Below are positions 2,426-19,405 of a stretch of DNA of 64,000 nucleotides, in pieces. Numbering within the stretch: position 1 is the stretch's first letter; each line of letters begins with the position of its first letter. A program made the translations under genes and the position numbers. The DNA lies in contig CAXXVO010000007.1 in NCBI GenBank assembly GCA_963422645.2, positions 160,001 to 224,000 on the forward strand, in the 5' to 3' direction. Below the pieces are notes generated by a model. The model was not told where the DNA came from. It did not search any database and saw nothing but the letters and a program-made list of their open reading frames with translations. This DNA is from Alphaproteobacteria bacterium (GTDB taxonomy: Bacteria; Pseudomonadota; Alphaproteobacteria; UBA828).

Positions 2426-3273
2426 TGGCCTACGTCTGCGTCGATAACCTGCATGTCCGCATCGGGACAGGGAGCGGCTCCATCCATGCGGTGCGGGGCG
2501 TGACCCTGAAGATCGACAGGGGCGAGATCCACGGGCTCGCCGGGGAAAGCGGCTCCGGCAAGACGATGACCTGCCTGACGCTGCTCGGCCTGGCGCCGCG
2601 CACGGCCGAGGTCGCCGCCGACCGGCTGGAATTCGACGGCGTCGACCTGCTTCGCGCCGACTGGCGGACCATACGGGGCGCCCGGATCACCATGATCCCC
2701 CAGGACCCGGCCGCCGCCCTCAATCCGGTCTACAGAATTCGCTACCAGATGGAGCGCGTACTCTGCGCGCACACGAGGCTGCGCCGGCGGGAGAGGTCCG
2801 CGCGCGCAATCCGCTTGCTGGAGGACGTCGGCCTGCCCGATCCTGAGCGGGTGATGGCGCTCTATCCTCACCAGATGTCCGGCGGCATGCAGCAGAGGGC
2901 GCTGATCGCGATGGCGCTCGCCGCCGGCGCCGATCTCCTGATCGCGGACGAGGCGACGACCGCGCTCGACGTGACCGTCCAGGCCCAGCTCCTGAACCTG
3001 CTGTCGGCGCTGCGCGCGCGCCACGGGCTGACCATCATCTTCGTCACGCACGACCTGGCGCTCCTCTCCAACTTCTGCGACCGGGCGAGCGTCATGCAGC
3101 ACGGGCGCATCGTCGAAGGCGGCACCGCCGACGCACTGTTCAGGACGCCCGGTCATCCCTATACCCAGGCGCTCCTCGCCGCGGCTCCGGGGCAGTACAG
3201 CCGGGGCATGCGAATCCCGACAGGCCTGGAGGCCGCTGAGCCCCGCCCCATCGGTGGAAGCGATGCGCCTTGA
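2425..3273 (+). CDS. Peptide ABC transporter ATP-binding protein (DppD-type)
   Basis: Walker A GESGSGKT, signature MSGGMQQR, Walker B LLIADEATTALD, HPYTQAL. Confidence 0.9.
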   Translation: MAYVCVDNLHVRIGTGSGSIHAVRGVTLKIDRGEIHGLAGESGSGKTMTCLTLLGLAPRTAEVAADRLEFDGVDLLRADWRTIRGARITMIPQDPAAALNPVYRIRYQMERVLCAHTRLRRRERSARAIRLLEDVGLPDPERVMALYPHQMSGGMQQRALIAMALAAGADLLIADEATTALDVTVQAQLLNLLSALRARHGLTIIFVTHDLALLSNFCDRASVMQHGRIVEGGTADALFRTPGHPYTQALLAAAPGQYSRGMRIPTGLEAAEPRPIGGSDAP

Positions 3274-7685: not shown

Positions 7686-8040
7686 TGTTAACGGCGGAGG
7701 AATAATGCTTCACGCGAAGCGGCCGGGCGGTCCGGTCGCGGCGGCGCAAAATTGCGCCACGTATGGCCCCTTGTCTATTTGGCACGGGGTGGGGGATGTA
7801 CGGCGTGGAGCTCTATGCGGCGGTTCGGCTGGCGGTTGTCGAGGAGGGTCTGAGCCATCACGAAGCCGGGCGGCGGTTCGGGATCGACCGCCGCACGGTG
7901 AAGAAGATGCTGAGCTATTCGTCGCCGCCGGGGTATCGGCGGTCGAGACCGGTTCGGCGGCCCAAGCTGGAAGGGTTCACCGGCATCATCGACGCGATCC
8001 TGGAGGCGGACGCCGATCCGGACGTGCCGCGCAAGCAGCC
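7686..8040 (+). mobile_element. istA: IS21-family remnant: left end plus first ~82 codons of istA
   Basis: TGTTAACGGCGG start with a repeated CGGCGG..(A)AT..GC..CACG motif. ORF from 7796 reads MYGVELYAAVRLAV..GLS..EAGRRFGIDRRTVKKML..PPGYRR..PKL. No catalytic domain or istB. Confidence 0.75.
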
Positions 8041-8287
8041 CTGCGCCAGTTCCGCGACATCGCTTCCGGAGAGCACGTCGGGTAAGAACCGAACGCCGGT
8101 GTGCAGATCTCTCTCGTGCGTTTGCCATCTCCCGTTTCCGACGTATCGCCGGCTCCATCGGACGGGAGACCAGCCACGACTGTTCCGGACCCGCCCTGGG
8201 TCGTTGCCGGCATCGCCGCCTCGAGGCAGAGAGCCGCGGCGAGCGGGCGTTGGGCGCCGGTCACGATGCGATTGGGGAGACACGCCG

Positions 8288-9193
8288 ATGTATGCCGGCA
8301 GGCTCGTCTACATTCCCGCCCTGGCGGCGCTCGGGGCGGTCTACGGCGCCCTCTTCCCGGTCAACAAGATGAGCGCGGAAGCCGGGCTTCCCTATATCGG
8401 CTATGTCTTCTGGTTCTCACTGATCGCCACGATCGGGCTCGCGATCCCGGCCGCGCTGAGGGGCGAGCTGCCGAGGCTCACTATTCCCCACATACGGGTC
8501 TATGCCGTCCTGGGCGGACTCGGCGTCGCAATTCCGGTGCCGCTGCTCACCTTCGTGGCGCCGAAGCTTCCAGTCGGCATCATAACGCTGTTAATGATCC
8601 TGGTGCCGCTGCTCACCTATCTGCTGTCCTATCTGGCCCGCATCGAGCGCTTTCGCCTGTCCGGGGTCATCGGGGTGCTGTTCGGCCTCGGGGGCATGCT
8701 GTTGATCCTGATCCCCGAGGTCAGCCTGCCGTCGCGGGACATGGTGGGCTGGGTGCTGCTGGGGCTGGTGGCGCCGGTCTGCTTCGCCGCCACCAACACA
8801 CTGGCGGTCTATCTCCGGCCTCCGGCCTCGCCGGCGCTGACGATGGCGACGGGCATGTCGGCCTGCGCCACGTTGATGCTGGCGCCGGTCATGGTCGGCA
8901 CCGGGCATGCCTACCTCTTTCCCGGGCCCGGCACCGCGGGCATGCTGGTTGTGCTCTACGCTGCGGCGATCACGGCGGTGACAATGGTCGGCTGGTTCGT
9001 GCTGGTGCGCATCATCGGCGCGGTCTACTTCTCGCAGTTCAACTACTTCATCGTTCTGAGCGGCTTCGGCTGGGGCGTTCTGCTATTCGACGAACATCAC
9101 GGCGTCTATGTCTGGGCGGCCACCGGCCTGACCTTCATCGGCCTCGCCGTCTTCACCCGCGGCGCGCACATCGAGGGCCGCGCAGACGCGTAG
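8288..9193 (+). CDS. DMT/EamA family transporter
   Basis: About 10 hydrophobic segments in two repeats. RBS GGGGAG precedes ATG 8288. Confidence 0.85.
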   Translation: MYAGRLVYIPALAALGAVYGALFPVNKMSAEAGLPYIGYVFWFSLIATIGLAIPAALRGELPRLTIPHIRVYAVLGGLGVAIPVPLLTFVAPKLPVGIITLLMILVPLLTYLLSYLARIERFRLSGVIGVLFGLGGMLLILIPEVSLPSRDMVGWVLLGLVAPVCFAATNTLAVYLRPPASPALTMATGMSACATLMLAPVMVGTGHAYLFPGPGTAGMLVVLYAAAITAVTMVGWFVLVRIIGAVYFSQFNYFIVLSGFGWGVLLFDEHHGVYVWAATGLTFIGLAVFTRGAHIEGRADA

Positions 9194-9340
9194 ATCGCAG
9201 GAGATACCGGCCCCGCAGCACCACCGTCTCGCCGGTGGCGTGTTTGCGGTTCACCGATTTTTGCGGAGCCGTTCAGCTTCCGATACGTTGATTCGAAGAC
9301 CGGACGACGAGAGCTTCGACTTTTTTCGCGGAGGCGCCTG

Positions 9341-9745
9341 ATGATCGGTTATGTAACCCTTGGCTCGAACGACATTGCCCGCACCGGTGAGTTCTACGAT
9401 GCGCTGCTCGGCGAGATCGGCGCGACGCGGCAGATAGAAGGAGAGACCTTTGTCGCTTGGTCGGTGACCCCCGGCACTCCGATGCTGTGGGTCATCAAAC
9501 CCTTCGATGGCACGCCGGCGAGTGTCGGCAACGGCGTCATGGTGGCCCTCGCGGTCGACTCGAAGGATCATGTGGAGCGCCTGCACGCGAAGGCGCTCAG
9601 TCTGGGCGCCAGTGACGAAGGCGCCCCGGGGCTGCGCGGCGATACCTTCTACGGCGCCTACTTCCGCGACCCTGATGGGAACAAGCTGGCGGTGTTCGAC
9701 AAAACAGTCATGGTCCCCGCGGTTCTGAGCCACCCCGTGGCATGA
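9341..9745 (+). CDS. VOC/glyoxalase family protein; native last 4 codons displaced to 13240-13254 by IS110 insertion
   Basis: MIGYVTLGSND..FYDALL, PFDG.PASVGNG.MVAL, GASDEGAPGLR..FYGAYFRDPDGNKL. Confidence 0.9.
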   Translation: MIGYVTLGSNDIARTGEFYDALLGEIGATRQIEGETFVAWSVTPGTPMLWVIKPFDGTPASVGNGVMVALAVDSKDHVERLHAKALSLGASDEGAPGLRGDTFYGAYFRDPDGNKLAVFDKTVMVPAVLSHPVA

Positions 9746-9811
9746 AACAGGAGCGGTTCGGCTGACGTTTTCCTTGCGCTTGCACCCATTTGCCGTGTCA
9801 GGATGGGTATT

Positions 9812-9994
9812 GGCGGAGGTGGGGACGTGTGAGCGTCGTTATATCGGTGACGTAGTTCCCGATGACAAAACTGCTTCCGGCGGCCGGCTCCGCACCCCGT
9901 ATTGTACCCGGCCCGTGGCCGTGGACGCGCGGCAAATTGCACCGCACCCGCTCGTCGGATGCGTGTTCTTCCGACCGCTGTCCCCGCCTCCACC
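9812..9994 (+). ncRNA. Candidate IS110 bridge RNA in the left non-coding end (second copy 11580-11762)
   Basis: Closing stem 9812-9827/9979-9994, internal hairpins, and short matches to the donor junction and target (see findings). Confidence 0.5.
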
Positions 9995-10056
9995 GTGGCG
10001 ATGCCACGGCGTGATCGTACGCCGCCGTGGCGAGAGCGCAAATGAGGAGGAAGGCG

Positions 10057-11307
10057 ATGAAGACGGAAGGCTTGCACGTCGTCCGGCCGCGCGCGGCGGG
10101 TCTGGACGTGCACAAGATGGAGATCACCGCGACGGTTCGCCTCTGTGAGGGCGAGGGTGAGCCGGTGGTGGAGACGCGCTGCTTCGGCACGCTGCCGAGC
10201 GGTCTGGAGGAGATGGTCGCGTGGCTGACCGGTCACGGCGTCGAGGCTGCGGTGATGGAAGGGACCGGGGTCTACTGGCAGGCGCCCTTCGCGGCCCTGG
10301 AGGCGGCCGGGCTCGAGGCGATCCTGGTGCATGCGCGTCAGGTGAAGCAGTTGAAGGGGCGCAAGACCGACGTGGCGGACAGCGTGTGGCTGGCCTGCGT
10401 GTGCCAGTTCGGGCTCTGCACGCCTTCCCACGTTCCGCCTGAGCCGTTCCGGGAGCTGCGCGCACTGAGCCGCCAGCGCCGCGTCCTGGTCAGGCAGCGC
10501 TCCGCCGTGCGCAACCGCGTGCAGAAGATCATCGACCGCGCCGGTGCGCGCATCGGCGGCATCCTCTCCGACGTCTTCGGCGTCAACGGCCGGAAGATCC
10601 TCGACGGCCTGGCGCAGGGGACGGCGCGCGAGGTCATCCTCGCCTCGCTCACCAGCCACGTTGCGAACAAGCTGGAGGGGCTCGGCGAGGCGCTCACCCT
10701 GAGCCTGGGCGACAACGACCGCTTCATGCTCAACGACCTGCTGGAGGAGCATGACGCGCTTGAGGCGCGCATCGCGTCCTACACCAGGAAGATCGACGGG
10801 CAGATGACACCGTGGGAGGAGCAGCTCCGTCTGCTGACCACCATCCCCGGCATCGACCGCACCGCCGCCTCGACCATCCTCATCGAGATCGGCCCCGACA
10901 TCGGCGTGTTCGCCTCCAAGGAGCACTTCGCCGCCTGGGCCGGGCTCTGCCCCGGCAACAACGAGAGCGGGGGCAAGCGCCGCAACGCACGCACCCGCAT
11001 GGGCTCCAAGACCCTGCGCGCCTGCCTCGTCGAGTGTGCCCACGGCGCGGCCCGAACCAAGGGGTGCCAGTTCGAGGCTCATCACCGCGCCCTCGCCGCC
11101 CGGCGCGGCTACAAGCGCGCCATCGTCGCCGGCGCTCACAAGATGCTGCGCATCATCTATGTGGTGCTCAAGACCGGCAGGCCCTACTACGACCGCACGG
11201 CCGACTACGACGCTCTGATGGTCAAGCGCAACGCTCCTCGGTGGATCCGCATGCTCCGCCGCTACGGCTACATCGAGCCCGTAGGCGCGGAACTCAAGGC
11301 CGCCTGA
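10057..11307 (+). CDS. IS110 transposase/bridge recombinase
   Basis: DEDD motifs GLDVHK, VMEGTG, KTDVADS; C-terminal GLCPGNNESGGK serine motif. RBS GAGGAGGAAGG. Confidence 0.95.
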   Translation: MKTEGLHVVRPRAAGLDVHKMEITATVRLCEGEGEPVVETRCFGTLPSGLEEMVAWLTGHGVEAAVMEGTGVYWQAPFAALEAAGLEAILVHARQVKQLKGRKTDVADSVWLACVCQFGLCTPSHVPPEPFRELRALSRQRRVLVRQRSAVRNRVQKIIDRAGARIGGILSDVFGVNGRKILDGLAQGTAREVILASLTSHVANKLEGLGEALTLSLGDNDRFMLNDLLEEHDALEARIASYTRKIDGQMTPWEEQLRLLTTIPGIDRTAASTILIEIGPDIGVFASKEHFAAWAGLCPGNNESGGKRRNARTRMGSKTLRACLVECAHGAARTKGCQFEAHHRALAARRGYKRAIVAGAHKMLRIIYVVLKTGRPYYDRTADYDALMVKRNAPRWIRMLRRYGYIEPVGAELKAA

Positions 11308-11469
11308 GCGGCCCGCATCTCGTCAGCCGGCTACGCGGGACCGCTTCGGACCACATCGGGGAAGTCCACCGCTCGTCTCCGCCGCGCCGACCCTGGCGGT
11401 CTCAGCCAACGCCGTGACCTCGGGGTTGGAGCGTCACCGCGCGTCCCTCGCCAGAATCTGTTTCACGGC

Positions 11470-13239
11470 AAACAGTCATGGTCCCCGCGGTTCTGAGCCA
11501 CCCCGTGGCATGAAACAGGAGCGGTTCGGCTGACGTTTTCCTTGCGCTTGCACCCATTTGCCGTGTCAGGATGGGTATTGGCGGAGGTGGGGACGTGTGA
11601 GCGTCGTTATATCGGTGACGTAGTTCCCGATGACAAAACTGCTTCCGGCGGCCGGCTCCGCACCCCGTATTGTACCCGGCCCGTGGCCGTGGACGCGCGG
11701 CAAATTGCACCGCACCCGCTCGTCGGATGCGTGTTCTTCCGACCGCTGTCCCCGCCTCCACCGTGGCGATGCCACGGCGTGATCGTACGCCGCCGTGGCG
11801 AGAGCGCAAATGAGGAGGAAGGCGATGAAGACGGAAGGCTTGCACGTCGTCCGGCCGCGCGCGGCGGGTCTGGACGTGCACAAGATGGAGATCACCGCGA
11901 CGGTTCGCCTCTGTGAGGGCGAGGGTGAGCCGGTGGTGGAGACGCGCTGCTTCGGCACGCTGCCGAGCGGTCTGGAGGAGATGGTCGCGTGGCTGACCGG
12001 TCACGGCGTCGAGGCTGCGGTGATGGAAGGGACCGGGGTCTACTGGCAGGCGCCCTTCGCGGCCCTGGAGGCGGCCGGGCTCGAGGCGATCCTGGTGCAT
12101 GCGCGTCAGGTGAAGCAGTTGAAGGGGCGCAAGACCGACGTGGCGGACAGCGTGTGGCTGGCCTGCGTGTGCCAGTTCGGGCTCTGCACGCCTTCCCACG
12201 TTCCGCCTGAGCCGTTCCGGGAGCTGCGCGCACTGAGCCGCCAGCGCCGCGTCCTGGTCAGGCAGCGCTCCGCCGTGCGCAACCGCGTGCAGAAGATCAT
12301 CGACCGCGCCGGTGCGCGCATCGGCGGCATCCTCTCCGACGTCTTCGGCGTCAACGGCCGGAAGATCCTCGACGGCCTGGCGCAGGGGACGGCGCGCGAG
12401 GTCATCCTCGCCTCGCTCACCAGCCACGTTGCGAACAAGCTGGAGGGGCTCGGCGAGGCGCTCACCCTGAGCCTGGGCGACAACGACCGCTTCATGCTCA
12501 ACGACCTGCTGGAGGAGCATGACGCGCTTGAGGCGCGCATCGCGTCCTACACCAGGAAGATCGACGGGCAGATGACACCGTGGGAGGAGCAGCTCCGTCT
12601 GCTGACCACCATCCCCGGCATCGACCGCACCGCCGCCTCGACCATCCTCATCGAGATCGGCCCCGACATCGGCGTGTTCGCCTCCAAGGAGCACTTCGCC
12701 GCCTGGGCCGGGCTCTGCCCCGGCAACAACGAGAGCGGGGGCAAGCGCCGCAACGCACGCACCCGCATGGGCTCCAAGACCCTGCGCGCCTGCCTCGTCG
12801 AGTGTGCCCACGGCGCGGCCCGAACCAAGGGGTGCCAGTTCGAGGCTCATCACCGCGCCCTCGCCGCCCGGCGCGGCTACAAGCGCGCCATCGTCGCCGG
12901 CGCTCACAAGATGCTGCGCATCATCTATGTGGTGCTCAAGACCGGCAGGCCCTACTACGACCGCACGGCCGACTACGACGCTCTGATGGTCAAGCGCAAC
13001 GCTCCTCGGTGGATCCGCATGCTCCGCCGCTACGGCTACATCGAGCCCGTAGGCGCGGAACTCAAGGCCGCCTGAGCGGCCCGCATCTCGTCAGCCGGCT
13101 ACGCGGGACCGCTTCGGACCACATCGGGGAAGTCCACCGCTCGTCTCCGCCGCGCCGACCCTGGCGGTCTCAGCCAACGCCGTGACCTCGGGGTTGGAGC
13201 GTCACCGCGCGTCCCTCGCCAGAATCTGTTTCACGGCAA
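11470..13239 (+). mobile_element. IS110-family element, copy 2
   Basis: Same sequence as copy 1 at offset 1768 bp. Confidence 0.9.
11825..13075 (+). CDS. IS110 transposase/bridge recombinase (same translation as copy 1)
   Basis: Translation identical to 10057-11307. Confidence 0.95.
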   Translation: MKTEGLHVVRPRAAGLDVHKMEITATVRLCEGEGEPVVETRCFGTLPSGLEEMVAWLTGHGVEAAVMEGTGVYWQAPFAALEAAGLEAILVHARQVKQLKGRKTDVADSVWLACVCQFGLCTPSHVPPEPFRELRALSRQRRVLVRQRSAVRNRVQKIIDRAGARIGGILSDVFGVNGRKILDGLAQGTAREVILASLTSHVANKLEGLGEALTLSLGDNDRFMLNDLLEEHDALEARIASYTRKIDGQMTPWEEQLRLLTTIPGIDRTAASTILIEIGPDIGVFASKEHFAAWAGLCPGNNESGGKRRNARTRMGSKTLRACLVECAHGAARTKGCQFEAHHRALAARRGYKRAIVAGAHKMLRIIYVVLKTGRPYYDRTADYDALMVKRNAPRWIRMLRRYGYIEPVGAELKAA

Positions 13240-13347
13240 GCATATATGGGCTGAGCCGGCCGCACTCCGGCGGAGCCTGCGAGCGCACACGCCACCCGGC
13301 CCAGCGCCGACCGCGTCCGGCCGGACTGGAACGATGAAGTCTCGCGA

Positions 13348-14412
13348 TCAGGCAAGCTTGGCGCCCGTCGGCACGAGACCGGTTTCAGAGAACCGCCAAA
13401 GTGCGATGAGTAGCTTGCGGGCGAGCGCCACGACCATCACTCGACGAATACGTCCCCGGGCTCCGGCGGTGCGCCCCTCGAACCACTTGCTAAGCGCGCT
13501 GTCGGGTTGATGACGCAACCAGCGCCACGCTATTTGGATGAGGAGGGCACGGATCCAGGCCGGACCGTCGCGGCCGATCCCCTGATCGCGTTGCATTTCC
13601 CCGCTTGCCCACGGGGTCGGCGTCAACCCGACCCAGCTCGCAAGCTCACGGCGGTTGCGGAAGTCGCGGTAGAAGATCTCGTGCTCGAGCAGCCTCGCGT
13701 CGTTCGCGCCGATCCCATTCAGCTGGGTCAACGTCGCGATCTTGGCCGTCACCTTCTCCTGGCTTCCCTCCGGCGCGACCGGCACCGCGATAGCCTCGCC
13801 CTGGCGGACAACTTCATCTCGCTCGGCCTCGACTTCCGCGATCTGCCGCTGCACGAGCGACAGCCTCTCCACAAGCCGAAGGATCTCCTGGCGAGCCCGC
13901 GGCGGGAACGGCGATCCATACGCGGTCACCGCGTCCGCGAACCTCCGCTCGAACCCTTTGGCGCGCGGGTCCAGGTCGAAGACCCCCTGAAGCTTCAGCA
14001 GCCCCTTGATCGAGTTGGTCAGCGAGGTCCGCTCCTTCACCAGGCGCCGGCGCTCGCGAAGCAGTCGCTTGCGATCTTCCTCCTCCACGCTCGGAACCCG
14101 CACCTGGCTCAGCACCGCAGCGTCGCCCCGGTCGTGCGCGAGCAGCGCTCGTACCATCTTCTTCGCGTCAATCCGATCCGTCTTGCGCTGCTTCGCCTTC
14201 CGATTCACCAACAGGCTCGCCGGATCGAGCACCACCGTCTCGATGGACATCTCCCGGTCCAGCCAGCGCTCCAGCCAGAAGCCCTCGTAGCCCGCCTCGT
14301 AACAGCACAGAACGCGCACCTCTCGGCCGAGGGCCCGTTCCGCCTTGGCCCGCTGATGCTCGATCAGCTCTCTGAGGCCTTCGACGTCCGCTGGCTGTTG
14401 ATCGGCGTGCAA
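13348..14412 (-). pseudogene. Second, unrelated IS110-family transposase, 5'-truncated
   Basis: CCYEAGYEGFWL, KTDRIDA, VGLTPTPWASG..RDQGI, VALARKLLIALWR. The first catalytic strand and the start are missing; an IS end lies at 14448. Confidence 0.85.
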
Positions 14413-14447
14413 TTTTGGCCCCGTAGTATCAAGCTACTTCAATAACT

Positions 14448-16890
14448 TCAGACTTCCTGACCTCGTGATGCTGGCTGTTCTGGGCAGCGTGCCGGGAACT
14501 CCTTGAATTCTGATACATTTCGGTTGTTTCAGGCGGTTTTTCGCTGGGTGTCGCGCCCGAGGTCTGATAGTATAATTTGATACCAATTGCACGGTCTCAA
14601 CCATGCCCAGTACCCTCCCAATGTGCCCTCCAGAGGCGGTCTCGATCGGCAACAGCTGCTTCGCCGTCCTGATCTCGGACGACACCTTCACCTACTTTTC
14701 CAACCTCATTCCCTTTGACAGCCACGCCGCCGATGACCGCACGGCCATGCTCTTGCGGATCGGCCGCCTCGCGGCGATCAGCGCGGTCTCGCCGCAGGAA
14801 CTGGCTGACGCTTTCGCTGTCTCGCGCGCGACGGTGCAGCGCGCACGACGGCGCTACCTGGCCGAGGGCGAAGCGGGGTTCATGAAGCCCCGGCGCGGTC
14901 GCGGGCCGTCGGTGTTCACTCCGGAGTTGGCGGAGAAGGCGACGGCGTTGCTGGCATCGGGCCTGAGCGGCTCTGCGGCGGCCCGGGTTCTCGGCGTGTC
15001 AGCGCCATCGGTCAACAAGTGGCGCCGTCAGGGACTGATCGGCAACACGGAGGCGGATGGGGAGCCCGGACGCTCAGCGCTGGCTGCGCCGCCTGACGCG
15101 GGTGCGGCTCCTGAAGGCCGTGTCGATGAAGAGAGTACCGGTGCCCCGGGGCCGGAGACGGCGCCGGGGCTGGAAGCGCAGCCGCAAACGGATCGCAGCG
15201 CGCGCGATCGGCGGGACCGGCAGGCGCCGATGGGGCGTGCGACTTGCGATGTTCCGGCTCGGGTTCTGGCCAGTTGTGGACAGGCGGGGCCGGTCGAACC
15301 GCAGTTCGCCGCCGCCGCCCGCGGTGTCCGCTTCGGCGGCGTGCTCGCCGCCCTGCCGGCCCTGCTGAAGGAAGGTCTTCTCTCCGAGACCGGTCTCCTG
15401 CCATTGCTGCCGAAGGGCTATTACGGCTTGCCTACGATCCTGCTCTTCCTGGCCTTCATGACCTTGGCGCGGGTGCGCAACCCCGAGAGCCTGCGCTACC
15501 AGGCGCCGGGCGAATGGGGCGCCATTCTCGGCCTCGATCGCTGCCCCGAGGTCAAGACGCTGCGCCGCAAGATCGCTCTCATCGCCGACGACGAGGCCGG
15601 CGTGCGGGCGTGGCAGCTCGCCCTTGCCAGGCGCTGGCAGGCGCCGACGAGCCGGAGCTCTGGGCGACGCTGGCCATCGACGGGCACGTCAAGGTCTACT
15701 CCGGCCGCAAGGGGCGCTTGCCCAAGCACTTCGTCTCGCGCGAGAAGCTGTGCCTGCCGGCGAGCGCCAGCTACTGGATCAACGCTCTGGGCGGCAAGCC
15801 GCTGCTCTGTCTGCACAAGCCGCTGGACCCGAAGATGGTCGCGGCCATCGAAGCCGACGTGGTGCCGGCGCTGCAGGAGCTTGGGATCGTTGGCGCCGGG
15901 GCGCCGGACCTGACCGCCGAGCATCCCGGCCAGCCGGCGCTCACCCTGGTCTTCGACCGCGAGGGCTGGAGCCCGGATCTGTTCCGCCGGCTGGCGAGGC
16001 GCGGCGTCGCCTGCCTGACCTGGCACAAGAACTTCAGGGGCGAGGACTGGCCGGCCGAGGACTTCGGCGCGATGACCGTTCCCATTCACGGACCGGCGGC
16101 GGACGGCAGCGCCACCATGCGGCTGGCTGAGAAGCCGGTGACGTTGCCGAACGGCTTCAGGGTGCGCCAGATCCGCCGCCTGCTCGACAACGGCCGTCAG
16201 GTGCCGCTGATCACCACCGATCCGCACAAGCCGATGGCTGAGGTTGCGGGCGCCATGTTCTCGCGCTGGTCGCAGGAGAACTTCTTCAAGTACATGCGTG
16301 ACGAGTTCAATCTCGACGCCCTGCCGACCCACGAGCTCGAGCCTCTCGATCCCGCCGCCATGGTCGTCAACCCGCTGCGGCGGGCCTATGACAAGGCAAT
16401 CCATCGCCTCGACCGCCAGCTTGGCCGCCTGCGCAACCGCATCGCCGACACGGCCCGGAAGAAGCAGCCGACGGCGGAACTCAGGAGGGAAGTCAGGGAC
16501 CTCCAGGATGTCCGCGACATCGTCAGGGCCAGCCGCAGGGAGACGCCCAAGCACTGCCGGGCCGGCGACCTCGACGAAGCCGAGCAGCTCGATGCCTTGC
16601 CCGCGCGCGAGCGCCTCCTCCTCGACGTCATCCGGATGATCGCCTACCGCGCCGAAACCCGCATGATGCTTCCCGTCATGCAGGCGCAGGGCCACAAGCC
16701 CCATCCCCGGAAACTGCTTCAAGCGCTGCTCACCGCCGATGCCGACATCCTGCCGGATCCTGGCAATGGCCTCCTGCGGGTCCACATTCTTGGCCTCGCA
16801 AACGACGCCTGCGACCGTTGGATCGATGCGGTTCTGAGCGACCTGAACGCCACCGAAACGGTCTTCCCCGGCACCCGTCTGCGCATAGTC
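14448..16890 (+). mobile_element. Unclassified DDE IS, outer copy (left IR plus body, interrupted 75 bp before its right end)
   Basis: IRL TCAGACTTCCTGACCTC at 14448. A 2443-bp direct repeat of 16891-19333; one SNP noticed (14570 G vs 17013 T). Confidence 0.9.
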
Positions 16891-16911
16891 TCAGACTTCC
16901 TGACCTCGTGA
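14603..16911 (+). pseudogene. Large HTH + DDE transposase, frameshift at about 15643, C-terminus replaced by read-through into the next IRL
   Basis: Two HTH segments; GVLAALPALL, LGLDRCPEVKTLR; catalytic-like IDGHVKVY, VFDREGWS, RWSQENFFKY. Confidence 0.75.
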
Positions 16912-19405
16912 TGCTGGCTGTTCTGGGCAGCGTGCCGGGAACTCCTTGAATTCTGATACATTTCGGTTGTTTCAGGCGGTTTTTCGCTGGGTGTCGCGCC
17001 CGAGGTCTGATATTATAATTTGATACCAATTGCACGGTCTCAACCATGCCCAGTACCCTCCCAATGTGCCCTCCAGAGGCGGTCTCGATCGGCAACAGCT
17101 GCTTCGCCGTCCTGATCTCGGACGACACCTTCACCTACTTTTCCAACCTCATTCCCTTTGACAGCCACGCCGCCGATGACCGCACGGCCATGCTCTTGCG
17201 GATCGGCCGCCTCGCGGCGATCAGCGCGGTCTCGCCGCAGGAACTGGCTGACGCTTTCGCTGTCTCGCGCGCGACGGTGCAGCGCGCACGACGGCGCTAC
17301 CTGGCCGAGGGCGAAGCGGGGTTCATGAAGCCCCGGCGCGGTCGCGGGCCGTCGGTGTTCACTCCGGAGTTGGCGGAGAAGGCGACGGCGTTGCTGGCAT
17401 CGGGCCTGAGCGGCTCTGCGGCGGCCCGGGTTCTCGGCGTGTCAGCGCCATCGGTCAACAAGTGGCGCCGTCAGGGACTGATCGGCAACACGGAGGCGGA
17501 TGGGGAGCCCGGACGCTCAGCGCTGGCTGCGCCGCCTGACGCGGGTGCGGCTCCTGAAGGCCGTGTCGATGAAGAGAGTACCGGTGCCCCGGGGCCGGAG
17601 ACGGCGCCGGGGCTGGAAGCGCAGCCGCAAACGGATCGCAGCGCGCGCGATCGGCGGGACCGGCAGGCGCCGATGGGGCGTGCGACTTGCGATGTTCCGG
17701 CTCGGGTTCTGGCCAGTTGTGGACAGGCGGGGCCGGTCGAACCGCAGTTCGCCGCCGCCGCCCGCGGTGTCCGCTTCGGCGGCGTGCTCGCCGCCCTGCC
17801 GGCCCTGCTGAAGGAAGGTCTTCTCTCCGAGACCGGTCTCCTGCCATTGCTGCCGAAGGGCTATTACGGCTTGCCTACGATCCTGCTCTTCCTGGCCTTC
17901 ATGACCTTGGCGCGGGTGCGCAACCCCGAGAGCCTGCGCTACCAGGCGCCGGGCGAATGGGGCGCCATTCTCGGCCTCGATCGCTGCCCCGAGGTCAAGA
18001 CGCTGCGCCGCAAGATCGCTCTCATCGCCGACGACGAGGCCGGCGTGCGGGCGTGGCAGCTCGCCCTTGCCAGGCGCTGGCAGGCGCCGACGAGCCGGAG
18101 CTCTGGGCGACGCTGGCCATCGACGGGCACGTCAAGGTCTACTCCGGCCGCAAGGGGCGCTTGCCCAAGCACTTCGTCTCGCGCGAGAAGCTGTGCCTGC
18201 CGGCGAGCGCCAGCTACTGGATCAACGCTCTGGGCGGCAAGCCGCTGCTCTGTCTGCACAAGCCGCTGGACCCGAAGATGGTCGCGGCCATCGAAGCCGA
18301 CGTGGTGCCGGCGCTGCAGGAGCTTGGGATCGTTGGCGCCGGGGCGCCGGACCTGACCGCCGAGCATCCCGGCCAGCCGGCGCTCACCCTGGTCTTCGAC
18401 CGCGAGGGCTGGAGCCCGGATCTGTTCCGCCGGCTGGCGAGGCGCGGCGTCGCCTGCCTGACCTGGCACAAGAACTTCAGGGGCGAGGACTGGCCGGCCG
18501 AGGACTTCGGCGCGATGACCGTTCCCATTCACGGACCGGCGGCGGACGGCAGCGCCACCATGCGGCTGGCTGAGAAGCCGGTGACGTTGCCGAACGGCTT
18601 CAGGGTGCGCCAGATCCGCCGCCTGCTCGACAACGGCCGTCAGGTGCCGCTGATCACCACCGATCCGCACAAGCCGATGGCTGAGGTTGCGGGCGCCATG
18701 TTCTCGCGCTGGTCGCAGGAGAACTTCTTCAAGTACATGCGTGACGAGTTCAATCTCGACGCCCTGCCGACCCACGAGCTCGAGCCTCTCGATCCCGCCG
18801 CCATGGTCGTCAACCCGCTGCGGCGGGCCTATGACAAGGCAATCCATCGCCTCGACCGCCAGCTTGGCCGCCTGCGCAACCGCATCGCCGACACGGCCCG
18901 GAAGAAGCAGCCGACGGCGGAACTCAGGAGGGAAGTCAGGGACCTCCAGGATGTCCGCGACATCGTCAGGGCCAGCCGCAGGGAGACGCCCAAGCACTGC
19001 CGGGCCGGCGACCTCGACGAAGCCGAGCAGCTCGATGCCTTGCCCGCGCGCGAGCGCCTCCTCCTCGACGTCATCCGGATGATCGCCTACCGCGCCGAAA
19101 CCCGCATGATGCTTCCCGTCATGCAGGCGCAGGGCCACAAGCCCCATCCCCGGAAACTGCTTCAAGCGCTGCTCACCGCCGATGCCGACATCCTGCCGGA
19201 TCCTGGCAATGGCCTCCTGCGGGTCCACATTCTTGGCCTCGCAAACGACGCCTGCGACCGTTGGATCGATGCGGTTCTGAGCGACCTGAACGCCACCGAA
19301 ACGGTCTTCCCCGGCACCCGTCTGCGCATAGTCTACGACATCGACGGGGCCTCGGAATCCGCGCGGCTCGTGTCACCTAAAATCAGCAGAGGTCAGGAAG
19401 TCTGA
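16891..19405 (+). mobile_element. Unclassified DDE IS, inner complete copy (2515 bp, perfect 17-bp IRs)
   Basis: IRL 16891-16907 and IRR 19389-19405 (GAGGTCAGGAAGTCTGA). Flanked by duplicated GTC (or AGTCT if the IRs are 16 bp). Confidence 0.92.
17046..19405 (+). pseudogene. Large HTH + DDE transposase with the same frameshift (about 18086); stop codon lies inside IRR
   Basis: Same motifs as the outer copy; ends SPKISRGQEV-TGA. Confidence 0.75.

Follow-up and report, generated by a model that had tools for sequence, protein, structure and literature searches.

The window analyzed here is a 64,000-nucleotide (nt) stretch of contig CAXXVO010000007.1 from an Alphaproteobacteria bacterium, and it contains two tandem copies of one 1766-bp insertion sequence of the IS110 family, both on the plus strand. 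Each copy consists of a non-coding left end of 353 nt, a recombinase gene of 416 codons and a right end of 162 nt. Comparative sequence analysis indicates that the left end, at about 9812-9994 of the plus strand, very probably encodes a bridge RNA (also termed seekRNA) of ∼185 nt used by the element's own recombinase, a reading to which we give a probability of roughly 0.88. On this evidence the RNA is a real and well-supported further bridge RNA of the known class, with target guides in the order opposite to that of IS621. Two defining properties of such RNAs are present: the longer non-coding end (353 versus 162 nt) lies beside the recombinase gene and is read on the same strand, as an excess of G-U pairs indicates, and loop strands of the folded RNA covary both with the target DNA and with donor DNA, meaning the element's joined ends.

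The protein itself qualifies by its profile matches as an IS110-family RNA-guided recombinase. It matches PF01548 (E-value 1.8e-23) and PF02371 (E-value 4.5e-21), corresponding to the N-terminal DEDD/RuvC-like and the C-terminal Tnp domains, and passes the NCBIfam model NF033542, 'IS110 family RNA-guided transposase', with 270 bits against a cut-off of 140. Matches to solved recombinases are distant (IS621 structure 8wt6, E-value 6e-16; ISCro4, E-value 3e-15).

By analogy with IS621, the RNA would pair with the insertion target and with the element's own joined ends, and would be used for this by the DEDD/Tnp recombinase. Two modules lie inside a closing stem, P1. The target module consists of the stem GAGCG:TGCTT, an internal loop and a hairpin, with GACA-AA(-AC) as the sense sequence of left target and core, which would pair with the bottom strand. 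The donor module forms a three-way junction in which CGCGGC-AA(-A) is the sense sequence of the right-end tip and core, and TGTT, following hairpin B, is complementary to the core and the first left-end bases. An original prediction, drawn from the letters of the window, had proposed this succession of a target and a donor module with readable guides. Every string that it named is found in place, and when homologous left ends are folded and built into a covariance model, the structure covaries and the guides covary with target and donor. The module order and the readable left target and left donor guides are borne out by covariation, of guide with DNA and within the structure, across relatives of 97% to ∼42% protein identity.

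Guide strands and the DNA they follow

The 37 places occupied by the element in its own genome reduce to 33 unique insertion sites. Their target logo reads G at -4 (17/33), A at -3 (29/33), C at -2 (33/33), A at -1 (32/33), the dinucleotide AA (33/33) and A at +1 (24/33). Two repeated targets also occur empty in the same genome, in 2 and 23 copies, and comparison with them reveals a 2-bp duplication of AA. Logo and empty sites together define the target as left target (..ACA)-AA-right target and the donor as CACGGC-AA-ACAGTC. The core dinucleotide AA is thus present at both junctions, is duplicated relative to the empty sites, and recurs inside both bottom-strand guides.

Relatives were collected by a scan of species-representative genomes, which gave 57 loci of 97% to 42% protein identity, and a metagenome scan, which gave 10 more; single loci are named below by handles such as L088. 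The family is sparse, with a homolog at an E-value of at most 1e-60 in only 4 of 401 genomes of the class, the window's own included. The aberrant, interrupted left end of L086 was excluded from both target-guide tests, and each test omitted those loci in which the left-end start (L054, L055, L087, L090-L092) or the right end that it needed could not be identified. The L086 left end is broken at ∼1300-1500 by the right end of another copy. Two further loci are irregular at the other end: in L051 (∼2890-2930) the right-end tip is partly duplicated, with ACTGTTTCACGGCAA occurring twice, and in L042 (∼2910-3060) a partial second right end follows the right end.

The strongest signal comes from the left target guide. 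The segment GACAAA (9864-9869), predicted to match left flank and core, does so and covaries with the flank (0 of 100,000 permutations). Over 24 distinct variants, mean identity of the guide to its own flank is 3.93 of 6 positions, versus 1.54 to the flanks of other lineages; by position it amounts to 1.00, 0.94, 0.86 and 0.69 at -1 to -4 and reaches background at -5 and -6. The guide reads GACA here, ATAT, ATCT, CACC, ACGC, CGCT, TGAG, CCAC, GTTG or GTCT elsewhere, and GTAT in L088, and each of these listed classes equals the four bases before the core at its own insertion. The two guide bases that follow the core (AC here, TC in L088) are the first two bases of the left end and not those of the right target, which is TG in L088; in the window's own genome, C occupies position +2 at only 7 of 33 sites. 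We infer that this extension matches the left junction, which would favor the product or excision.

The right target guide seems to lie elsewhere than predicted. The proposed segment, TGCTT (9872-9876), is a stem strand, either invariant or covarying with GAGCG (9831-9835), with which it pairs. Its match to AAGCA is attributable to chance, as AAGCA is found at only 2 of 33 genomic sites. From the sequences of relatives, the right target guide most likely lies in TCGTTATAT, the 5' strand of the target loop, which precedes the left target guide and in relatives is complementary to the top strand of core and right target. Guide/target matches are CCGCAT/ATGCGG (L055 type), GAAGGT/ACCTTC (L093), TCCTTT/AAAGGA (L039), CCTTT/AAAGG (L062) and GCGGT/ACCGC (L089), the 6-nt matches of the L055 type, L093 and L039 being the best cases. 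The mean longest complementary run of this strand is 3.96 nt, compared with 3.35 nt (standard deviation 0.16) in permuted pairings, and 8 of 20,000 permutations do as well. A right target guide located 5' of the left one would explain the 2-nt spacing between the two proposed target matches, which the original prediction had found atypical. The positions of the loop strands give the order of the target module as top-strand guide, hairpin, bottom-strand guide.

In the donor module, the left donor guide follows the right-end tip. As had been predicted, 8 of 9 positions of CGCGGCAAA agree with CACGGC + AA + A of the right end, and the G at 9929 lies opposite T. In 7 of 7 distinct variants the two variable positions of the guide correspond to the right end, a score that 950 of 100,000 permutations reach. 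Guide classes GGC, AGC and AAC pair with right-end tips GGC, AGC and AAC across lineages; an AGT class matches the right end in L094, as judged by eye, and in L096, which belongs to the same class, the right end was not found. For the right donor guide, the predicted placement at TGTT is upheld by L088, where the left end begins with TCT rather than ACA (A to T) and the strand after hairpin B reads AGAT (GTT to GAT), and the length read is reduced to ∼3-4 nt. Three other positions considered for this guide, 9888-9902, the loop of hairpin A and the loop of the target hairpin, were rejected, since by eye none tracks left-end bases 3-6. These bases vary freely, and no RNA segment follows them.

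The design extends to distant homologs. With the model filters off, 7 of 8 plasmid homologs of 30-45% identity have a match to the RNA model immediately before the gene, at E-values that are rough and range from 8e-8 to 0.38 (four below 0.01); the Streptomyces locus L107 is the only one of the eight in which no match to the RNA model was found. A plasmid element from Bacillus thuringiensis shows agreement at 11 of 11 nt between its 3' loop strand, GTAAAATAAAC, and the left flank, and its donor guide, ACAGAAAA, is identical to right end and core. In a Citrobacter plasmid element of 30-37% protein identity, TAAAAAAAC agrees with the flank TTAAAAAAC at 8 of 9 nt, 7 of them contiguous. The target module is also detectable upstream of homologs in Bacillota, Beta- and Gammaproteobacteria. 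These matches indicate that the target-module design is old and widespread in the subgroup, whose proteins agree in length with the 395-455 amino acids stated for the IS110 subgroup in PMC11187229. The Citrobacter element (L112, locus 430-480 of Citrobacter freundii plasmid NZ_CP150625.1) sits at ..TTAAAAAAC.. with an annotated IS66 transposase on one side; its upstream flank is suspected to be an IS3-family gene, and IS3-family genes are the targets described for ISEc21 in the text of Siddiquee et al. (PMC11187229).

Covariation with DNA also bears on the idea that a 5' mRNA leader of the recombinase gene, acting on translation or stability, is all that the structure amounts to, its matches to flanks and ends being incidental. 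The position would suit a leader: the ribosome-binding site and the ATG at 10057 follow directly downstream of the structure, a further hairpin at ∼9996-10024 lies between it and the ATG, and a separate promoter or terminator was not found in the left end or at the junction. A leader leaves unexplained why four bases change with the left flank over 24 variants and two with the right-end tip, and why the same guide-DNA relation recurs in distant phyla. A leader role could moreover exist alongside a guide role, for which it is no substitute. As a full account of the left end it is very improbable.

Fold, strand and expression

Structurally, the bridge RNA reading is supported by a fold conserved in 37 distinct relatives. 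The consensus was obtained with RNAalifold from 25 distinct representative left ends, drawn from the 57 loci and the window, and this structure, with hairpin B added by hand, formed the covariance model. The model gives 38 matches in 40 sources, of which 37 distinct rows were used for pair counts. In these rows, aligned to the model, 92.7% of consensus pair cells are paired, versus 82.8% in shuffled controls (0/500 as good) and at most 52% in slid controls, and 29 of 45 consensus pairs show changes on both sides. The RNAalifold run on the 25 left ends, which used a MAFFT-based alignment, has the same helices as the covariance-model alignment. The fold of the whole 353-nt left end as a single sequence is unexceptional (z -0.30).

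Compensatory change is spread over the individual helices. In the target-module stem, pair 25:113 occurs as UA in 16, GC in 15, AU in 3 and CG in 1 sequence, and pair 24:115 as GC in 14 and AU in 12. The two helices of P2 (helices 4 and 5) show changes on both sides in 5/5 and 2/3 pairs. Hairpin A is kept even in homologs of ∼60% protein identity. The hairpin predicted at 9943-9950/9956-9963 (hairpin B) is real, with compensatory changes among C.A, C-G and T-A. The closing stem, predicted as 9812-9827 with 9979-9994, is recovered both in the single-sequence fold and in the family consensus, except that its last two pairs (9826-9827 with 9979-9980) compete with another helix. Two G-U pairs had been assigned to it; one T-G pair (9820-9986) is present, together with a C.A mismatch (9814/9992).

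This covariation also speaks to the possibility that the motifs act as DNA, either as internal copies of target-like and end-like sequence bound by the recombinase or as recombination hot spots. The element does have DNA features of this kind, namely a subterminal inverted repeat that covaries and, at 9789-9797, the right-end tip in inverted copy. The helices, however, covary with conserved G-U pairs (27:111, GU in 33/35; 147:175, UG in 28/37), which are relevant only in RNA, and the motifs lie in single-stranded loop strands of the structure. We accord this explanation a very small chance.

Strand assignment follows from the same alignment. Consensus pairs contain 169 G-U versus 34 A-C cells, which indicates the plus strand, and 92.7% of consensus cells are paired on the plus strand versus 84.2% on the minus strand, in an alignment fitted to the plus-strand model. 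A functional RNA read in antisense to the left end, on the minus strand, would likewise carry target and donor complements, and as a single sequence the segment 9809-9997 folds better on that strand (-92.2 kcal/mol, z -4.04, 0/200 shuffles as good) than on the plus strand (-83.3 kcal/mol, z -1.86). The G-U excess speaks against this, as does the location of the characterized bridge RNAs and seekRNAs, which in the texts of PMC11208160 and PMC11187229 are all on the recombinase strand. A minus-strand RNA is accordingly judged very unlikely.

The better minus-strand fold is one of several points that weigh against a plus-strand bridge RNA with a full set of guides. The pair counts derive from an alignment fitted to the model, which favors the structure. 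A search of Rfam with positions 8000-15000, at E-values up to 1, returned chance matches only, in the recombinase gene and elsewhere. Neither the junction nor the left end yielded a sigma-70-like promoter or a terminator. The signal of the right target guide is modest, and the 33 own-genome sites show no right-target conservation beyond +1, so that this copy seems to rely on GACA-AA-a alone and apparently makes little use of its right target guide. The right donor guide has one compensatory event behind it (L088), and L031/L032 and L036 carry TGTC at this position despite an identical left end. Finally, the contigs of one metatranscriptome run cover the whole element and break at its ends in the manner of repeats, and DNA carry-over is possible in them.

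Further expression data are of the same kind. Four metatranscriptome runs contain contigs of relatives, mostly 85-95% alike, with small word shares of 0.07-0.12; parts of the element left uncovered by these contigs carry no meaning. In another run, contig X1 joins right end to left end, as a circle, a tandem array or DNA would. These contigs are compatible with transcription through a circle or array and are proof of neither. A scan of 11380-11830 for sigma-70 consensus promoters, the only type that it covers, returned 0 sites.

Relation to known bridge RNAs

The mechanism of IS110-family elements has been published (Durrant 2024, PMC11208160; Hiraizumi 2024, PMC11208158; Siddiquee 2024, PMC11187229). 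Knowledge of bridge RNAs or seekRNAs dates from 2024, and most IS110 elements are predicted by covariance models to have one (PMC11208160). The comparisons below refer to those parts of these texts that describe the features concerned.

The RNA resembles that of IS621 in several respects. It lies in a long left end, upstream of a DEDD/Tnp recombinase and on the same strand; a target module precedes a donor module, each arranged guide-hairpin-guide and with guides that covary with target and donor; the 2-nt core is part of both bottom-strand guides; and the donor module runs left guide, hairpin, right guide, the right guide being short or discontinuous. The IS621 target module consists of a stem, the left target guide (50-58), a stem loop and the right target guide (77-80) (PMC11208158, PMC11208160). 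Unlike in IS621, the top-strand guide here is the 5' one (9836-9844) and the bottom-strand guide the 3' one (9864-9871), so that the IS621 architecture is found for the donor module only. The left target guide comprises 4+2 nt rather than 7+2, a three-way junction that has an additional, invariant hairpin holds the donor guides, AA stands in place of CT as the core, and the protein is a distant one of 416 versus 328 amino acids (E-value 6e-16). The sigma-70 promoter of the IS621 junction has no counterpart in the consensus scan of 11380-11830.

Top-before-bottom order is the rule in IS1111-type seekRNAs, and ISEc21, of the IS110 type, shows the reverse (PMC11187229). The present element shares with the IS1111-type seekRNAs of ISEc11, ISPa11 and ISKpn4 a top-strand match 5' of the bottom-strand match and a subterminal inverted repeat (PMC11187229), and its donor junction can be likened to the multiloop that holds the donor-binding bases in many IS1111 elements (Durrant et al., PMC11208160). 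It differs in that their non-coding region lies downstream of the recombinase gene, whereas here it lies upstream; in that their repeats are of 11-13 bp, 7 (6-7) and 3 bp from the ends, compared with 5-9 bp, 35-42 nt from the left and 4 nt from the right end here; and in that their transposases have 330-350 amino acids rather than 416 (all PMC11187229). A length of 416 falls within the 395-455 amino acids given in that text for the subgroup that holds IS110 itself. With ISEc21 the element shares an upstream non-coding region and an RNA that matches both target strands, but in ISEc21 the bottom-strand match is 5' of the top-strand match, the reverse of the order here (PMC11187229).

The IS1111-like traits, namely the subterminal inverted repeat, the top-strand guide in first position and donor guides in a multiloop (PMC11187229, PMC11208160), raise the question of whether the guide RNA is encoded in the right end (11308-11469), as in IS1111 elements, with the left-end structure being something else. 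The right end is conserved among close relatives. It is, however, short (162 nt), has no target match of the ACAAA type, and cannot be aligned beyond the tip in relatives of ∼60% protein identity. Full-length matches to the RNA model lie directly upstream of the recombinase gene or just after the right end (L094, L087), and 0 of the 38 matches in 40 sources lie within the right end. We consider a right-end guide RNA extremely improbable.

No text among those compared, figures and supplements aside, was found to describe an RNA that is encoded upstream and also has the top-strand guide first, a guide of 4+2 nt, a closing stem and a three-way junction for the donor. A further proposal goes beyond the bridge RNA assignment and is put forward tentatively, as we hold it to be possible and rather doubtful: the RNA may represent a third, undescribed bridge-RNA architecture typical of the long-transposase subgroup (∼395-455 amino acids) that holds IS110. 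Such an architecture would combine an upstream RNA, a target module circularly permuted relative to IS621, a short 4+2 guide, a three-way donor junction and a subterminal inverted repeat, and the 3' extension of its guide might be a bottom-strand 'handshake' that recognizes the left junction. If true, it would break the two-class rule by which upstream RNAs place the bottom-strand guide first and downstream RNAs the top-strand guide.

Recombinases become programmable through bridge RNAs, and it is from natural variants that the tolerance of the scaffold to change can be defined. This element provides a natural and well-supported example in which the guide order is opposite to that of IS621 although the RNA lies upstream of the recombinase gene. 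Its long guide reads only four target bases and the core, and the family offers many natural retargeting events to learn from. The effect of low guide specificity on a genome is visible in the copy number of 48, the 33 distinct sites and the head-to-tail arrays with as many as five members described below.

The element, its copies and its surroundings

The features of the element are collected in Table 1. The RNA parts of copy 1 recur in copy 2 at +1768, and the RNA model matches copy 2 at 11577-11765 with the same score as copy 1.

Table 1. Positions in the window of the element, its predicted RNA parts and its recombinase gene.
Feature	Position	Strand	Remarks
IS copy 1	9704-11469	+	1766 bp, ACAGTC...CACGGC; core AA at 9702-9703 and 11470-11471
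IS copy 2	11472-13237	+	identical to copy 1, tandem period 1768; right core AA 13238-13239
Subterminal inverted repeat, left arm TGAAACAG	9743-9750	+	partner CTGTTTCA; at least 5 covarying classes across lineages
Subterminal inverted repeat, right arm CTGTTTCA	11458-11465	+	4 nt from right end
TTTGCCGTG	9789-9797	+	reverse complement of right end + core + A
Closing stem P1, 5' strand	9812-9825	+	pairs with 9981-9994; helix 1, 8/10 pairs changed on both sides
Closing stem P1, 3' strand	9981-9994	+	family consensus
Target-module stem, 5' strand GAGCG	9831-9835	+	pairs with TGCTT 9872-9876
Target-module stem, 3' strand TGCTT	9872-9876	+	covarying
Target-loop 5' strand TCGTTATAT, candidate right target guide	9836-9844	+	complementary to top strand of core + right target in relatives
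Target-module inner hairpin (CGGTGA / TTCCCG)	9845-9861	+	helix 3; pair 46:96 GC 19, AU 16
Predicted left target guide	9864-9871	+	GACA (target -4 to -1) + core AA 9868-9869 + extension AC, the first 2 nt of the left end
P2 5' strands	9878-9887 (9878-9882, 9885-9887)	+	pair with 9976-9980 and 9971-9973; close the donor three-way junction
Hairpin A	9903-9927	+	more conserved than any other RNA part; immediately 5' of left donor guide; helix 6, 98.8% of cells paired
Predicted left donor guide CGCGGC + AA + A	9928-9936	+	core 9934-9935; tracks right-end tip
Hairpin B	9943-9963	+	between left and right donor guides; helix 7, 7/8 pairs changed on both sides, 78% paired
Predicted right donor guide TGTT	9964-9967	+	complementary to core A + ACA of left end; G-T-T follows hairpin B in most relatives
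Recombinase gene	10057-11307	+	416 amino acids from ATG 10057; alternative GTG 10027

The window's own genome (5.9 Mb, 23 contigs) holds 48 copies of the element, 47 of them identical over 1768 nt and one with a 32-bp deletion. They occupy 31 places as single copies and six as head-to-tail arrays of 2, 2, 2, 3, 3 and 5 copies. The spacers at the 11 internal array junctions, of which window positions 11470-11471 are one, read AA in 6 and AAA in 5. Three loci with the same outer flanks hold 1, 2 and 3 copies, and there the AAA spacer has one A more than expected from a 2-bp duplication; the right junction of relatives shows the same one-A wobble. The excess could stem from slippage of the register, from a stagger of 3 nt or from an error in the homopolymer. 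Insertion into a right end followed by A, acting as a target mimic, was considered for the AAA junctions and fails at the three same-flank loci, where one A is left over.

Arrays of this kind resemble published cases. Tandem duplication of a whole IS110 module (10.64898/2026.08.14.744561) and tandem cargo repeats of CazIS110-1 (10.1101/2025.10.25.684509) are described in the texts compared, and the head-to-tail complete elements here, as well as those in L087 and L094, are similar. Insertion is argued in the text of 10.64898/2026.08.14.744561 not to regenerate the target, whereas the left junction here still matches the guide and its extension perfectly, so that re-insertion beside a resident copy would be possible and indeed expected. 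In the proposed mechanism, the RNA would be made from the joined right-end/left-end form, be it a circle or a tandem junction, would bind the recombinase, and would direct insertion at ..ACA-AA-a sites with a 2-bp AA duplication. Insertion would be promiscuous, with 33 distinct sites, because only ∼6-7 target bases are read and the right target guide seems little used. The element accounts for a large share of the repeats in its own genome, and the array in the window truncates a glyoxalase-like gene (9341-9745) by removing its last codons.

Some insertions fall into repeats of the host. In the window's own genome, a repetitive extragenic palindromic (REP)-like repeat with the motif CTGCCGTGAGCGACAAA (for example on C8, C5 and C18) has 42 copies that end in GACAA(A/G), followed by the conserved GAGCGTTTCCG, and 3 of the 42 hold the element. 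In relatives of the L049 and L055 types, insertions are found almost only in their own REP-like repeats.

Several sequences outside the folded RNA are also conserved. The subterminal inverted repeat measures 5-9 bp, and its distance is 4 nt to the right end of the element and 35-42 nt to the left. The segment TTTGCCGTG is able, by its sequence, to pair with the left donor guide and could so mask it in a longer transcript; TGCCGTG, in this region, is kept only among close relatives. The string CACCCCGT is present twice in the left end, at 9731-9738 within the conserved terminal DNA segment GCCACCCCGTGGCATGAAAC and at 9893-9900 within the conserved strand 5' of hairpin A, and both occurrences are conserved across lineages.

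The array has mobile neighbors in the window. Directly to its right, on the minus strand, lies another IS110-family gene (13348-14412, 354 amino acids), with a match to PF02371 and one to PF01548 that begins at profile position 27; it may be truncated, as its upstream side abuts a tandem element at 14448. That element (14448-19333) is a second, unrelated insertion sequence, likewise present as a head-to-tail pair, with a period of 2443 bp and two overlapping frames that match Transposase_29 (PF21804) and helix-turn-helix domains. With two unrelated tandem elements within 10 kb, the arrays could be biological or could reflect the assembly.

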